Assembly: GCA_963697335.1 (NCBI GenBank)
Contig: CAVONQ010000015.1
Span: 1 to 20,372, forward strand
Reading direction: 5' to 3'
DNA length: 20,372 nucleotides
Origin: an uncultured cyanobacterium
GTDB taxonomy: Bacteria; Cyanobacteriota; Cyanobacteriia; PCC-6307; Cyanobiaceae
Program-made: the position numbers
Part shown: piece after piece, positions 1-6,000 of the stretch
Numbering within the stretch: position 1 is the first letter of the stretch
How the letters are laid out: each line of letters starts with the position of its first letter

Positions 1-3000
1 TGGTTACGTCCTTGTGGCCCAGCAATTCCTGGATCGTGCGGATGTCCTGGCCGCGCTCCAGCAGGTGGGTGGGAAACGAATGGCGGAAGGTGTGGCAGCT
101 GGCAGCCTTGGACACGCCAGCTGCAGCGACGGCCCGCTTCACGGCTTTCTGCACGATGCTTGGATCCAGATGGTGGCGCCCCTGGGTGCCTGAGGCCTGA
201 TCGTGCCAGCGATGCGGCATTGGGGTACTTCCTTGCCAGGGCATAGGGCATCAGCACCCGGCCCCAGCCAGCGGCCAGATCCGCCTGATGCAGTCCCCGC
301 ACGCCCAGCAGATGGTGCTGCAGCTCAGCCACCAGGCTCTGGGGGAGGAGGGTGAGTCGGTCTTTACCCCCTTTCCCATCCCGCACGGTCAGTTCCCGTC
401 GCTCAAAGTCCAGATCCTTCACGCGCAGCCGCAGGGCCTCCATCAGGCGCAGCCCGCTTCCTTAGTGCAGCCCCACCACCAGGGTCTGATTCTGGGTGGA
501 GGGGCTCACCTGCAGGTCCACCGCCAGGTGGGTGAGGAAGCTGTTCACCTCGGCGCTGCCCATCTCCCGGGGATGGCGCAGGTTGTGGAAACGAAGAAAC
601 CTTCTCAACCACAGTTCATAGGTCTTCACCGTCCGCCGCGCGTAGTGGCGGGTCTGCAATTCCTCCCGTTAGCGCTGGATCAGAGCCGCGGGCTTGGGTT
701 GCTCTGGCATGGGGGCCTGCGCCATGGCGACGACTCAGAGTTGCCACGGCTGCCCAGGCATCTCAGCAATCCAGTGATGTGCGCCGCTCCGCGTCGCTGA
801 TGTCCCCCCGTTCGCGCTGCCACTGGCGGCGGCGCAGCTTGCCGTAGGCCTGGCAGAACTCCTCTCCGAGGGCCTGGCGCAGGCCGGTGTCGGCGTCGAA
901 GGCATCGAGGGCCTCGCCCAGATCGGCCGGCAGCCTTGGGCAGATCTCCGGTCCCAGCGGGCCGGCGTAGTTGTCGTTGTCGTGGCGGGGCCCCGGCTGC
1001 AGCTGGCGCTCGATGCCGTCCAGGCCCGCCGCCAGGATCGCCGCCTGCAGCAGGTAGGGATGGGTTGAGCCATCGGGCAGCCGCAGCTCCAGCCGCTGGT
1101 CGTCGGGGATGCGCAGCATGTGGGTGCGGTTGTTGCCGCTGTAGCTGATGCCCGCCGGGCTCCAGGTGGCACCTGATGTGGTGGGCGGTGCCGCCAGCCG
1201 CCGGTAGCTGTTCACCGTGGGGTTGGTGAGGGCGCACAGCGCTGGCGCGTGCTCCAGCAGGCCCGCCAGGAACTGATAGGCCAGCGCCGAGAGCCCCAGC
1301 TCACCGGCCGGATCGTGGAACAGGTTGGTGTCGCCCGCCCACAGCGAGAGATGGGTGTGGCAGCCGTTGCCGGTGCGCTCGGCGAAGGGCTTGGCCATGA
1401 AGCTGGCCTTGAGTCCCTGCTGCTCCGCCAGGGTCTTCACCATCACCTTGAAGAAGGCGTGGCGGTCGGCGGTGGTGAGGGCGTCGGCGAAGGTCCAGTT
1501 CACCTCGAACTGGCCGTTGGCGTCTTCATGGTCGGCCTGGTAAGGCCCCCAGCCCAGGCCCTCCATCGCCTCGAGCAGGGGCCCGATCAGCCCGTAGCGG
1601 CGCATCAGGGCCAGTTGGTCGTAGCAGGGTTTCTCCTGGTGGTCGGCGGCATCGGCGATGCCGGCGCCATCGGCCCCCAGCAGGAAGAACTCGGCCTCCA
1701 CGCCGCTGCGCAGCTCGTAGCCCAGGGCGCTGGCCCGCTCCAGCTGGATGCGCAGCAGGCGGCGGGGACACTGGGCCATGGGCGTGCCGGCCAGCACCAG
1801 CTCGGCCGCCACCCAGCCCACCTCCGGCTGCCAGGGCAGAGGGGTGAGGCTGGCGGGGTCGGGAATCGCCATCACGTCGCCATCGGCAGGGGAGAGATCC
1901 AGCCAGGCGGCGAAGCCGGCGAAGCCCGCCCCGTCCCGGGCCATGGCCGGGATCGCCGAGGCGGGCACGAGCTTGGCCCGCTGGATGCCGAACAGATCGG
2001 TGAAGGAGATCAGCAGGAACTTGAGCTGCAGCTCACGGGCCTGGCTGGCGAGGTCGGGCATGGGGAGGGAATCGGGGGAACTCAGGAGGCCAGGAGGCCA
2101 TCCACGATGCGGCGCAGCTGCCGCTGCTCGGGAGCGCTGCTGTGGGGATTGCCCGCCCGGTGGCCGAGCAGGGAGTGGATCAGATGGAATGCGGCGCCCG
2201 GGATCCGCTCGGCGTCGTCCGCCATGTCCTGCGGGGTGAAGTAGAGGTCGTGGTCGGCGGCCACCACGGCCGTGCGCGCCTGGATGCCGGCGAGGCCGGC
2301 TCCGAGATCGCCGCCTGCGGCCACGTCGTGGGCCAGCCAGGTGTCGAGCATGGCGATCAGGTCGCGGGGATCGTGGCGGCGGTAGTGGGGCAGCCACTGC
2401 TCCTCCACGTGCTGCTCCACCGGCATGGCGAGGCTCCGGAAGAAGGGCTGGCTGGCGGCCCAGCTCGCGTAGATCAGGGCATAGGTGCGCAGCCCCTGCT
2501 CCGGTGGCGCGTCGAAGCCCGCGCCGTTCCAGTGGCGATCGGCCGTGAGGGCCTGGCGCAGGCTGAGCAGGAACAGGCGGTTGTGGGGCGAGGTGCGGGC
2601 CGTGCCGCACACACAGCAGATCCGCTGCACCCGTTCGGGGCACTGCACCGCCCACTGGTAGGCCTGCTGGGCCCCCATCGACCAGCCATGGATCAGGGCC
2701 GGCCGCTCCACGCCGAACACCTCCGCCAGCAGCCGCTGCTGGGCGGTCACGTTGTCGCGGTGGTGCACCACCCAGCCCTGTTCGGCCAGGCCCATGGCGC
2801 CATGGCTGGGGCTGGAGGAGGCGCCGTTGCCGAACATGCCGGCGATCACCACGCACCAGCGCTCCGGATCGAACACCGGCCCCGCCAGCCAGGCCAGATC
2901 CTCCACCCGGGCGCCGTAGGAGCTGGGCACCAGGATCAGGTTGGAGCGCTCCGGGTTGGCCCGCCCCAGGGCCACGTAGCTCAGGTGCGCCTCCGGGATC

Positions 3001-6000
3001 ACCTTCCCGCAGCTCAAGCGGAAGTCCCCCAGGGGCAAGCGCTGCTCGGTGGGGATGGGGGCCGCTGCGCTGGCGATGCTCATGCCGGCAGGGCCAGGGC
3101 CTTGAGGTTGCCCAGCAGCTGGCGGTGCACGCTCAGGTAGCCCCGATCCAGATGCTGGAGCCGGGGCCCGATCCAGCCATGGGCCCGGGGCAGGGCGTGG
3201 AAGGGCAACGAGGGATAGAGGTGATGTTCGGCGTGGAACGGCATGTTCCACATCAACCAGCGCACCGGCGCGATGGTGAGGGTGGTGCGGGTGTTGGCGG
3301 TGCCGTCGGCGCCGAAGCTGCAGCCGCTGTGCTCGGCCAGGAGCATGAAGCGCAGGAAGGGCTGGCCTACCGCCAGGGGCAGCAGCCAGCTCCAGAGCAG
3401 GAAACCGTTGGCGTGGATGAAGGAGAGCACCAGCACCAGCCCGTACACCAGGACCTGCAGGCGCACCGAGCGGCGCACCTGGGGGATCACCTCGGGGCTG
3501 AGGTAGGGCAGGCCGCTCAGGTCTCCCCAGAGCAGGCGGCCATAGCCCTTCAGCTTGCCGATCCACCAGTTCCAGCCGCTGAGCTCGAGCAGATAGCCCC
3601 CGAGGCTGGTGGGCACGGGATCCTCCAGCTCCGGATCCAGGCCGGGCTGGTGGGTGAAGCGGTGGTGCCACTGGTGGTAGCGGCGGTAGAAGGTGGCGTT
3701 GTAGAAGCTCAGCACGCCGGCCCACCAGGCCACCGCGTCGTTCACCGCCCGGCTACGGAAGGCGGTGCGGTGGCAGCACTCATGCAGCGGCGCGAAGCAG
3801 GTGGCCAGGGCGATGCCGCTGATCACCAGTCCCGCCAGGCGCAGCGCTAGCGGCAGGCCGGGACTGCGCCAGATCAGCCCCGCCAGCCCGATCGTGAGCA
3901 GATGGCTGAGGAGCCGCACCACGGCAGCGGTGTTGCTGAGGGCATTGAGTTCGGCGAGGGCGGGGCGGTCGATCAGCCCGGTGCTGGAGGTGGTCATGGA
4001 ACGAGTCCAGCAGTCCGACGGGCCGCCCTGCGGTAGGGGTTGAAACCACGCCATGGCGGGGGGCTGTGACCATGCCTTGCCCTCCCTACAATCGGGATGT
4101 CCAGAATGAACACAATCCCCATGGTGTGCGCCGAACAGGTCGCGCTCGACGCCCGACCCGCCCAGGGCGATGGCGATCTGCGCCGTCAGGCGCTGGTGGA
4201 CTCCCTGCGCCATCGCTACGCCGAAGCCGTGAGCCGCGGCGATGCCGCCGCCAAGCAGGCACTCTTCCAGGAAGGCGTGTACCTGAACATTCCTCCCGAG
4301 CAGTTCGTGGGCGCCAACTGAGCAGGCTCCACCCCCGCGTCCAGCCTTCGACTCCCGTGCTGCTCCACAGCCTCTGGGGGTTTGATGGCGACCTGCCGCA
4401 GGCCATCAAGCAGGCCTCCAGCGGGGGCTTTCACGGGCTTGAGGCCAACCTCCGCCACCCCGCCCTGGCGGGTCTGGAGCCCCCGGCCGTGGCCGAGGCC
4501 CTGGCCGCCGCGGCCATGCCCCTGGTGCTCGAGCTGGTCACCGGGGGCGACTACGTGCCCCGGCTCGAGCTGGGGCCGGAACACCACCTTCGGGAGCTGG
4601 AATACCTGCTGGCGTCGTGCCCGGCCTACGCCCCACTCAAGGTGACGGTGATCACGGGCTCCGATGCCTGGAGCTGGGCTGAGCAGCAGGAGTTCTGGAG
4701 CCGGGCCATCCCCCTGGCCGAGGCCTCCGGGCAGGCGGTGAGTTTCGAAACCCATCGCTCCCGCAGCCTCCACAGCCCCTGGATGATCCAGGCCTTTCTC
4801 GAGGCCTTTCCCGGCCTGCGGCTCACGGCGGACCTGAGCCACTGGTGCGTGGTGGCTGAGCGGCTCATGACCCCCGAGCTGGCTCCCGTGGCGGCCATGG
4901 CCGCCCGCGTGGACCATATCCACGCCCGGGTGGGCCATCCCCAGGGCCCCTCGGTGGGCCATCCCTTCGCGTCGGAGTGGGCCGAGGCCCTGGAGGCCCA
5001 TCGCCGCTGCTGGCGGCTGTTCCGCCTCAGCCGCACCGGCGCCGCCCTGCCGTTCACGCTCACGCCCGAATTCGGGCCCGACGGCTACCTGCCCGAGCGG
5101 CCCTTCAGCCGTGAGCCGGTGGCCGATCTGTTGGAGATCAACACGGCCATGGCCCGCTGGATCCGCTCCGGTGCCCTCGATGCCGACGTCATCGTTCAGG
5201 CGTGAGGCCCATCACCGCAGGCCCATCACCTCGGCGTAGAGGCGCTGGTGCTGCAGCAGGCGCTGCTCCAGCCGGTGCGGCGGCCCCGGCGCCAGGCCGC
5301 TGCGGTAGCCCCGCTGGGCTGACTCCACCAGGCGGCGATCCTCCTCCAGGAACAGCAGCATGCTCTCCAGCCACTCGGCGGCCAGCGGGGCGTGTTCGGC
5401 CCTGCCCAGCAGCCACAGCTGCATGGCGCAGCGCTCGAGCGATAGGGGCGGGAAGCTGATCACCGCCAGCCGGCCATCGGGCCACACCAGCACATGGGTC
5501 CAGGGGGCGAGCCCGAAGGTGAGGAATTCGCCTCCCTCCATCGGGGTGGCCAGCAGGGAGCCGTGGCGGCTGAGGGCATGGCGGTAGTGCCGCACCGGCC
5601 CCTGCTCCCGGTGCAGCGTGCGCGGATGGGCGATGGCCACGTGGTAGTCGTCGAGGGTGTTGTCGTGGGCGATCTTCCAGTTGCAGGCCAGTTCGCGGAT
5701 GGTGTGGCCCAGCAGCTGCAGAGGCCGGGCCCAGGCTTCCCCCGCCTCCTGCAGCACCAGATCCAGCTGCTGCTCCAGGGGCAGGGGATCGGCGCCGATC
5801 GCCACCCAGATCAGCGGCCCGCTCACGCGGCAGGCCAGAGGTTGGAGCGGCCAGTCGGCGCGGCAGAAGGGCTCGAGGAACTCCCCTTCCCGGGCCGCCG
5901 CCCGCAGCTGGCCATCGAGGCTGTAGGTCCAGCCGTGGTACGGGCACACCAGCCGCCGGACGGCTCGGGCCTGGCCGCCCGGCTCCTGCAGGGCCACGCC

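Follow-up and report, generated by a model that had tools for sequence, protein, structure and literature searches.

We have asked what function is served by three adjacent genes in a picocyanobacterium, one of which is labelled as a glutamine synthetase. They lie in a contig of an uncultured member of the Cyanobiaceae (CAVONQ010000015.1); the window is the whole stretch of DNA analysed, 20,372 nucleotides in length. On the minus strand the order is oxygenase, hydrolase, ligase. The ATG of the hydrolase overlaps the stop codon of the oxygenase (ATGA), and the ligase starts 20 nt beyond the hydrolase. We propose, with a probability of about one half, that the trio is a methylamine nitrogen-scavenging unit that works without the N-methylglutamate enzymes, and in which the ligase acts first. 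The basis of the proposal is gene content, linkage, active-site residues, folds and distribution; the biochemistry of every step is predicted.

Table 1. Position of the trio and of neighbouring features in the window
Feature	Position	Strand	Basis
GmaS-clade gamma-glutamyl:amine ligase, 432 aa, NCBI-style label glnT	763..2061	-	TIGR03105, 7CQL match, pocket residues, tree
MekB/CgHle-fold serine hydrolase, 333 aa	2082..3083	-	PDB sequence matches, model fold, invariant columns
Membrane di-iron oxygenase (fatty-acid-desaturase superfamily, MocD-like), 305 aa, His boxes intact	3080..3997	-	PF00487, His boxes, fold matches
Conserved promoter-like element (GT[GCT]-N8-TAC, 22-24 nt spacer, TG-N3-T hexamer)	4004..4046	-	Upstream-region comparison
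Divergent 71-aa hypothetical protein and TIM-barrel protein	4106..5205	+	Travel with guanidine cluster
Guanidine cluster: guanidine-hydrolase-like gene, hypA, hypB, second ligase, ABC importer, Rieske oxygenase	5212..12885	-	Family matches
Second TIGR03105 ligase, within guanidine operon	9034..10401	-	566 vs 469.6; pocket T48, S175, F176, D188
Guanidine-I riboswitch	12760-12885	-	Rfam RF00442, 82.7 bits

The ligase and its amine pocket

The ligase scores 597.3 against TIGR03105 (cut-off 469.6), reproducing the values of 597 and 470 in the first-pass annotation, which had identified it as GmaS with a full methylamine pocket. Its best solved relative is RhGmaS (7CQL, 551 bits), and the two align in register so that the residue numbers coincide. 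The ligase has K30, A48, Y147, Q175, D177, E179, E186, N188, W300 and R312, i.e., all the pocket and catalytic positions named for RhGmaS in passages of PMC7948447. The methylamine pocket is invariant in 86/86 ligase sequences from trio contexts, some of these coming from overlapping loci. Ala (A48) stands in place of Asp50′ and Trp (W300) in place of the glutamate of the Glu-flap. The genome's own GlnA was said to differ, and indeed it has the FDGSS motif and Glu in the W300 column. Scores against glutamine synthetase I (TIGR00653; 266.6, cut-off 429.15) and PuuA (NF045547; 252, cut-off 650) are below threshold.

The family model is not specific to GmaS, because the second ligase of the window also passes it with a different pocket. 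The pocket residues are necessary but not sufficient, since Y147, Q175, D177, E179, E186, N188 and K30′ are retained by a SAR11-type paralogue too. In a quick tree (79 of 163 sequences) the trio ligase groups with proteobacterial GmaS encoded next to mgsABC, in one clade of 46 rows with 99% SH-aLRT. The matched positions and this clade support the assignment of the ligase as a GmaS.

Partner enzymes and distribution of the trio

The oxygenase belongs to PF00487; it has membrane helices and three invariant His boxes (HxxxH, HxxHH and HxxHH). Its best fold matches are two subunits of chloroplast import-motor complexes (8xks_K and 8xqw_M, TM 0.73-0.74); the value against AlkB is TM 0.49. A sequence search with its profile found no solved structure, and atlas searches returned only unnamed or generic desaturase clusters.

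The best PDB sequence matches of the hydrolase are 5e4y and 5d6o, and its model superimposes on MekB with TM 0.91 (0.89-0.92 over the MekB and CgHle structures). A MetX-like fold and a Ser134-Asp278-His307 triad (P0002 numbering) are present in the model and the invariant columns, with a basic residue immediately after the His. The protein scores 321 against PRK07581, below the cut-off of 332, and 93 against the homoserine O-acetyltransferase MetX (TIGR01392), far under the cut-off of 500. The basic residue occurs in 72/73 Reyranella-type and 39/39 cyanobacterial hydrolases, and in 2/11 non-cyanobacterial homologues, one of these two being oxygenase-linked. The earlier description of these partners, a membrane desaturase or hydroxylase and a MekB-like hydrolase, agrees with the His boxes and the fold.

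The oxygenase is directly upstream in 68/68 picocyanobacterial hydrolase loci, the same count as before. The ligase is downstream in 62/62 loci with room; the linkage stands, although by our criterion the count falls from the 63/63 given previously. The fixed three-gene unit of the first-pass annotation is supported by these loci, and in one instance the trio genes are carried together on a plasmid. No ferredoxin or reductase gene lies beside the oxygenase at the locus. An Rfam search gave the guanidine riboswitch as its sole RNA match, and no RNA holder is listed for the trio locus.

We counted 151 genomes of the family with a completeness of 90% or more; 74 of them have the oxygenase and 75 have TIGR03105 (74 above cut-off), with all 74 shared. 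These counts are higher than those given earlier (hydrolase in 51, ligase in 52 of 150). In a wider set of 301, the genomes that have both oxygenase and ligase belong to 11 families, so that calling the trio a picocyanobacterial unit is too narrow. The TIGR03105 cut-off is exceeded in 22 of the 301. Of these, 17 combine the oxygenase with a lack of MgsC, and five show the reverse, MgsC without oxygenase; the search for MgsC covered 30 genomes. This exclusion may reflect ancestry, as the five MgsC genomes span three families and their ligases belong to other clades. All 16 genomes that encode a close hydrolase contain both of its partners; a solitary oxygenase is seen in 8 cyanobacterial genomes, and one genome (G225) is without the hydrolase. 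Some cyanobacteria carry a canonical mgd-gmaS-mgs operon.

The source genome is 98.8% complete, and we found in it neither MgsABC nor MgdABCD, consistent with the earlier remark that no Mgs or Mgd genes for onward use of gamma-glutamylmethylamide (GMA) were seen. The sole large match for MgsABC is a glutamate synthase frame of 1570 aa; queries with MgsA and MgsC gave partial matches of 25-28%, and MgsB none. For MgdABCD the only match is GcvT-sized, with no MgdC/SoxA. A search for a PuuD-type (peptidase C26) hydrolase returned weak partial GATase matches only. The genome does have Amt, frmA-frmB and PurU.

The order of the steps

In the proposed route, methylammonium would enter the cell, probably via Amt, and the ligase would join it to glutamate at the expense of ATP to give GMA; this step is strongly indicated. 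Photosynthetic ferredoxin would supply the membrane di-iron oxygenase, which would probably then oxidise the N-methyl group of GMA, giving N5-hydroxymethyl-glutamine or, going further, N5-formyl-glutamine. In the least certain step, the serine hydrolase may take off the one-carbon group or cut the amide, generating glutamine (or glutamate and ammonia) together with formaldehyde or formate. The amine nitrogen would thus reach the GS-GOGAT pool and the carbon would be discarded, with oxygenase and hydrolase replacing MgsABC and MgdABCD. Placing the ligase first removes the dead end at GMA, and would explain the mutual exclusion with MgsC.

The neighbours of the trio elsewhere are also informative. 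In genome G267 the gene order is frmA-oxygenase-hydrolase-ligase-frmB. In G183, where MgsC was not found, a trimethylamine monooxygenase (770, cut-off 675) and a gene resembling TMAO demethylase (786, under the cut-off of 1100) are directly upstream of the trio. Such Tdm-like genes occur in 3/301 genomes, two with trio genes and one with MgsC. Genome G011 has a parallel set of oxygenase, ligase and gamma-glutamyl hydrolase, i.e., PhyH-ligase-C26. We count all of these in favour of the ligase-first order, together with the pocket, the RhGmaS Km, the mgsABC-linked clade, the absence of Mgs, Mgd and C26 enzymes, the 17-versus-5 exclusion, the 16/16 hydrolase genomes, the NtcA-like geometry and rise on nitrogen starvation described below, and Amt, frmA-frmB and PurU. 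Against it we count the pairs without ligase in Reyranella and on plasmids, the genomes with oxygenase alone, G225, missing FghA, the possible effect of ancestry, the third base of the upstream box not being A, the lack of a ppGpp response, the gene 2296 not being called, and the solved MekB relatives being acetyl esterases and not amidases. FghA is absent from 36/74 oxygenase-positive family genomes and from 7/17 in the wider set, and the oxygenase is present in 38/39 FghA-positive family genomes; given the 36 and the confounding by kinship, this co-occurrence is weak as proof of formaldehyde release. Nor do we favour the oxygenase as a substitute for dimethylamine monooxygenase; the PF11927 subunit is also found in 3/17 genomes with oxygenase and ligase.

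The first-pass annotation had the oxygenase and hydrolase degrading an N-alkyl compound, with the small amine thus freed captured by the ligase as an end product. The gene order fits this, and the pair does exist without GmaS. In Reyranella-type loci oxygenase and hydrolase are adjacent in 70/73 with room and the ligase is found in 0/80; 5/5 such genomes had no TIGR03105 match above cut-off and no MgsC. On two proteobacterial plasmids the pair is accompanied by an alcohol dehydrogenase, again with the ligase missing. That oxygenase-linked hydrolases have a basic residue following the His whether or not a ligase is present suggests one substrate in both settings. It is the Reyranella pair that keeps this order under consideration. 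However, GMA would then be a dead end costing a glutamate; Mgs and Mgd would be expected beside the trio, yet MgsC is in 0/17 genomes; and no conserved transporter or upstream gene was seen at the trio loci compared. We therefore retain GmaS and the unit, and consider the release of amine before its capture to be unlikely.

Keeping the ligase first, the amine could instead be ethylamine or another small primary amine, with a theanine-type intermediate and release of acetaldehyde or acetate. RhGmaS has a Km of 58 μM for ethylamine (PMC7948447, Table 1), the hydrolases of solved structure that come closest are acetyl esterases, and passages of PMC12588301 describe degradation of theanine as a nitrogen source by Synechocystis. 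This is nevertheless distinctly improbable, as frmA/frmB and the Tmm/Tdm-like genes, the telling neighbours, belong to C1 metabolism and the exclusion is with MgsC. Methylamine is a photosynthetic uncoupler, and the ligase might trap it as GMA that is then exported, with an unrelated lipid or ester function for the remaining two genes. The solitary oxygenases and the modest induction would suit such detoxification, but 74/74 co-occurrence in the family, the stop/start overlap and shared carriage on a plasmid leave it little credence. The NCBI name, type III glutamate-ammonia ligase, would imply an isoenzyme of glutamine synthetase with low affinity, which is scarcely credible. RhGmaS does accept ammonium, with a Km of 8.7 mM against 27 μM for methylamine (PMC7948447, Table 1); the Ala and Trp at the Asp50′ and Glu-flap positions, and the presence of a true GlnA, argue against it.

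Upstream element, related systems and the guanidine operon

The complete upstream element, with its 22-24 nt between box and hexamer, is found in 65/74 upstream regions, compared with 0.025 in shuffles. For an NtcA-activated promoter we took a box 22-23 nt upstream of the -10 hexamer, and the genome's own glnA has an exact GTA-N8-TAC with the same spacing (23 nt). The third base of the trio box is G, C or T in 65/65, never A, whereas strong NtcA targets keep a strict GTA according to passages of PMC5714215; only 4/24 other loci checked have the exact GTA-N8-TAC upstream of the oxygenase. The element thus resembles an NtcA-activated promoter in geometry, with a degenerate box. A reading as RNA structure was rejected, the folding z over 65 sequences being about 0 for the spacer and -0.3 for the whole element.

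In S. elongatus, Synpcc7942_1713 is annotated MocD and is followed by an alpha/beta hydrolase (parts of PMC4973221 and PMC10749895). For the annotated counterparts of the trio, the log2 changes given in PMC4973221 for nitrogen starvation versus repletion are 1.68 (1713), 1.19 (1714) and 0.92 (2296), the last not called differentially expressed there. Supplement rows of PMC10749895 have these genes unchanged on over-accumulation of ppGpp, and the text-form supplements of PMC11420160 do not list them.

With the N-methylglutamate pathway (GmaS, MgsABC, MgdABCD; RhGmaS 7CQL, MmGMAS 9QUR) the trio shares the first enzyme, its pocket and its clade, but has an oxygenase and a serine hydrolase where MgsABC and MgdABCD stand. 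Gamma-glutamylation routes serve isopropylamine (Ipu) and putrescine (Puu), and the logic proposed here would be the same, the amine being protected as a gamma-glutamyl amide, oxidised and hydrolysed. In the trio, however, a membrane di-iron enzyme takes the place of a P450 or flavin oxidase as the oxidant, and the hydrolase has the MetX fold and is not a peptidase C26. The oxygenase is of the superfamily of the rhizopine oxygenase MocD, a proposed O-demethylase, and has its His boxes; it is 30-38% identical to rhizobial plasmid relatives. The hydrolase has the fold and triad of the acetyl esterases MekB and CgHle at 29-33% identity, but with Arg in place of Leu after the catalytic His and no adjoining Baeyer-Villiger monooxygenase. 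Demethylation of methylguanidine by MgdH and MgdL, as described in part of PMC12508155, is a precedent in that an N-methyl group is hydroxylated and the resulting hemiaminal, which is stable, is cleared by a second enzyme; these are a 2-OG dioxygenase and a beta-barrel lyase, unlike the trio in families and substrate.

Methylated amines are a common pool of dissolved organic nitrogen, usually credited to heterotrophs. The abstract of PMC7574528 states that microalgae usually cannot metabolise them, and our literature search, which covered few subscription journals, found no description of a native cyanobacterial GmaS or of the trio. If the proposal is correct, roughly half of the picocyanobacterial family as sampled (74/151) and members of ten other cyanobacterial families could use methylamine nitrogen directly. 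Three mislabelled genes (glnT, mocD and the MetX-like hydrolase) would gain functions, bacteria a further methylamine pathway, and the desaturase superfamily a new reaction. We tentatively suggest that S. elongatus PCC 7942, this half of the family and other phototrophs pass methylamine nitrogen directly into glutamine via GmaS, a membrane di-iron N-demethylase that is driven by light and has a soluble amino-acid amide as its substrate, and a MetX-fold deformylase. All three genes have annotated counterparts in the genetically tractable S. elongatus PCC 7942.

The adjacent guanidine operon contains a guanidine-hydrolase-like gene that we label gdmH, presumably of the Synechocystis sll1077 family. 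A single pathway with the trio, from methylguanidine to methylamine, was rejected, since the trio adjoins the operon in only 23/51 loci with room. Oxygenase and gdmH occur together in 62 of the 151 family genomes, oxygenase only in 12 and gdmH only in 18, and the operon is treated as separable from the trio. The TIM barrel as an analogue of MgdL is unsupported, MgdL being described as a beta-barrel protein. A guanidine cluster without the ligase is described in part of PMC10119275; in the window the second ligase is 44% identical to that of the trio, and falls in a separate clade of the tree.

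The trio ligase and a second ligase of the guanidine operon

The hydrolase start overlaps the oxygenase stop, and the ligase starts 20 nt beyond the hydrolase. The tight linkage claimed in the first-pass annotation is upheld in picocyanobacteria, with the oxygenase upstream in 68/68 hydrolase loci and the ligase downstream in the 62/62 with room for it.

Features of the window (positions in nt)
Feature	Length (aa)	Position	Strand	Basis
Oxygenase, fatty-acid-desaturase family	305	3080-3997	-	family profile
Alpha/beta hydrolase	333	2082-3083	-	family profile
GS-family ligase	432	763-2061	-	family profile
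Second TIGR03105 ligase		9034-10401	-	
Rieske oxygenase (weak GbcA-like match), convergent TIM-barrel protein, hypothetical protein (71 aa)		4106-6243		
Contig-end sequence resembling an integron integrase, immediately 3′ of the ligase		1-710		related ORF in locus L005

In profile searches the ligase scored 597 against TIGR03105 (cut-off 469.6) and did not reach the GlnA and PuuA thresholds. Its closest solved relative is RhGmaS (7CQL), with which it aligns in register. Its earlier identification as GmaS is borne out, since every pocket and catalytic residue named in the available passages of PMC7948447 is found. These residues are invariant in 86/86 non-identical trio-context ligase sequences, some drawn from overlapping loci; the columns of A48 and W300 hold Asp and Glu in the genome's own GlnA. 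A SAR11-type paralogue also retains the seven pocket residues; the stronger argument for the GmaS label is the tree. This was a quick IQ-TREE analysis of 79 of 163 sequences, taking in 12 trio rows picked at random from picocyanobacteria, 6 picked likewise from guanidine operons and the window's own, and leaving out near-duplicates and eight redundant rows. All trio ligases fall in one clade with mgsABC-adjacent proteobacterial ligases (99% SH-aLRT). The trio ligase is a further member of an already known family. At two alphaproteobacterial loci (L051, L053) gmaS follows not plain mgsABC but an MgsB-C fusion and a gene for a large reductase-like protein.

The second ligase, inside the guanidine-riboswitch operon of the window, scores 566 bits with TIGR03105, is 44% identical to the trio ligase and falls outside its clade. 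Guanidine-operon ligases have another pocket (T48, S175, F176 and D188 in 17/17 sequences); thus the profile is not specific for GmaS. In many picocyanobacteria this gene interrupts the operon between hypB and its ABC importer; the same type accompanies gdmH in genome G247 and, in G179, belongs to a different ABC-importer/desaturase/metallohydrolase cluster. The operon is a frequent neighbour of the trio and is separable from it; the portions of PMC10119275 available describe it without either ligase. The Rieske oxygenase, TIM-barrel and 71-aa proteins travel with the guanidine cluster, the first two usually being both there or both missing.

Distribution and the fate of GMA

The family sample of 151 genomes, each 90% complete or better, has the oxygenase in 74 and a TIGR03105 ligase in 75, with all 74 shared. 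Nine loci (L026, L038, L039, L047, L049, L072, L107, L116 and L133) are clearly picocyanobacterial despite titles naming Chitinophaga, Asaia, Bradyrhizobium, Klebsiella and others, which look mislabelled.

The trio was first described as picocyanobacterial. Its range is wider, as oxygenase and ligase occur together in 17 of 301 genomes from the phylum, spread over 11 families. In this set TIGR03105 is passed by 22 genomes; a close oxygenase (E <1e-60) occurs in 25 and a close hydrolase (E <1e-85) in 16. All 16 of the last carry both partners, the oxygenase always neighbouring the hydrolase; the ligase adjoins the pair in 10 and lies elsewhere in 6. A Leptolyngbya plasmid bears the full trio. 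S. elongatus, in the control set, exceeds the TIGR03105 cut-off; in published supplementary tables an alpha/beta hydrolase gene comes after its MocD gene, with the type III ligase separate, these being counterparts by annotation. We found no description of a native cyanobacterial GmaS or of the trio in the literature searched; the accessible part of PMC12588301 concerns a foreign GMAS put into Synechocystis.

MgsC, MgdC and a C26 hydrolase, sought in the window's genome, were not found. A gamma-glutamyl transpeptidase there (G000:C5:155286-156885) matched as three pieces in two reading frames and is possibly frameshifted. MgsC was sought in 30 genomes (22 ligase-positive, 8 oxygenase-only). 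It is present in five, exactly those ligase-positive without the oxygenase, and in 0/25 of those bearing the oxygenase. The five belong to three families and have ligases of other clades in the tree, so the exclusion is a pattern and not a statistical test. Two have a complete mgd-gmaS-mgs operon, and the canonical route is thus present in some cyanobacteria. Canonical mgd-gmaS-mgs or mgd-mgs operons were seen at cyanobacterial loci L215 and L216 (G231, G285) and L326 (G080).

Several neighbourhoods point the same way. The trio of G267 is flanked by frmA on one side and frmB on the other; directly upstream of that of G183 are a trimethylamine monooxygenase and a shortened TMAO-demethylase-like (Tdm-like) gene. 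The latter gene occurs in 3/301 genomes, each with either trio genes or MgsC. G011 has an analogous set of PhyH oxygenase, ligase and C26 hydrolase. Cyanobacterial trimethylamine islands lie at loci L213 (G183), L323 (G017) and L217 (G011). Their genes are those for Tmm, a soxG-like protein, PhyH, a binding protein, a SAR11 second-module clade ligase and the Tdm-like protein, which is about 150 residues short at its N-terminus; G011 has only the binding protein, PhyH and ligase of these, together with a haem N-demethylase subunit.

Proposed order of the reactions

We favour a route, at a probability of about one half, in which the ligase would act first to form GMA, the N-methyl group would then be oxidised, and hydrolysis would yield glutamine, or glutamate and ammonia, with formaldehyde or formate. 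This would be new within gamma-glutamyl amine catabolism. MgdH/MgdL, in the sections of PMC12508155 available, provide a precedent for two-enzyme N-demethylation via a stable hemiaminal. FghA is missing from roughly half of the genomes with the trio; formaldehyde therefore need not be released through glutathione, and a formyl intermediate would agree with this.

The main result against the ligase acting first comes from Reyranella-type genomes. Their oxygenase adjoins the hydrolase in 70/73 loci with room, no locus has a ligase close by, and GmaS and MgsC are absent from the 5/5 genomes searched. On two proteobacterial plasmids the pair occurs with an alcohol dehydrogenase. The pair is thus a module in its own right. 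Cells could import its substrate; alternatively, as originally proposed, the pair could work ahead of the ligase and free a small amine for it to capture, an order that we consider unlikely. Loci L230-L309, of Reyranella type, have a run of MSMEG_1061-family flavoprotein, oxygenase and hydrolase, and no GmaS.

The modelled hydrolase (pLDDT 95) resembles the acetyl esterases MekB and CgHle (TM 0.89-0.92), and Ser134, Asp278 and His307 are invariant in the alignment. Assignment as MetX was rejected (93 against a cut-off of 500). The residue following the catalytic His is Arg or Lys in 39/39 cyanobacterial rows and Arg in 72/73 Reyranella-type rows. It is Leu in MekB, and basic in only 2/11 non-cyanobacterial homologues, one of the two itself oxygenase-linked. 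Judged from sequence, a basic residue here would suit a carboxylate-bearing substrate. The oxygenase retains all its His boxes; its closest fold matches are two chloroplast import-motor complex subunits (TM 0.73-0.74) and AlkB (TM 0.49). The part of PMC2593844 consulted lists cyanobacterial members of the superfamily as MocD-like hydrocarbon oxygenases.

Regulation

Upstream of the trio, GT-N9-TAC followed at 22-24 nt by TG/TA-N3-T occurs in 65/74 regions (0.025 in shuffles). The genome's glnA carries an exact NtcA box with this spacing too. The third base of the trio promoter box is never A, and strong NtcA sites in the passages available from PMC5714215 differ from it at this base; exact boxes lie upstream of the oxygenase in only 4/24 other loci. 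A reading of the element as an RNA structure was rejected. In the data of PMC4973221 the annotated S. elongatus counterparts rise 1.9- to 3.2-fold in nitrogen starvation versus repletion; in those of PMC10749895 they are unchanged under ppGpp over-accumulation. Nitrogen control of the trio is likely.
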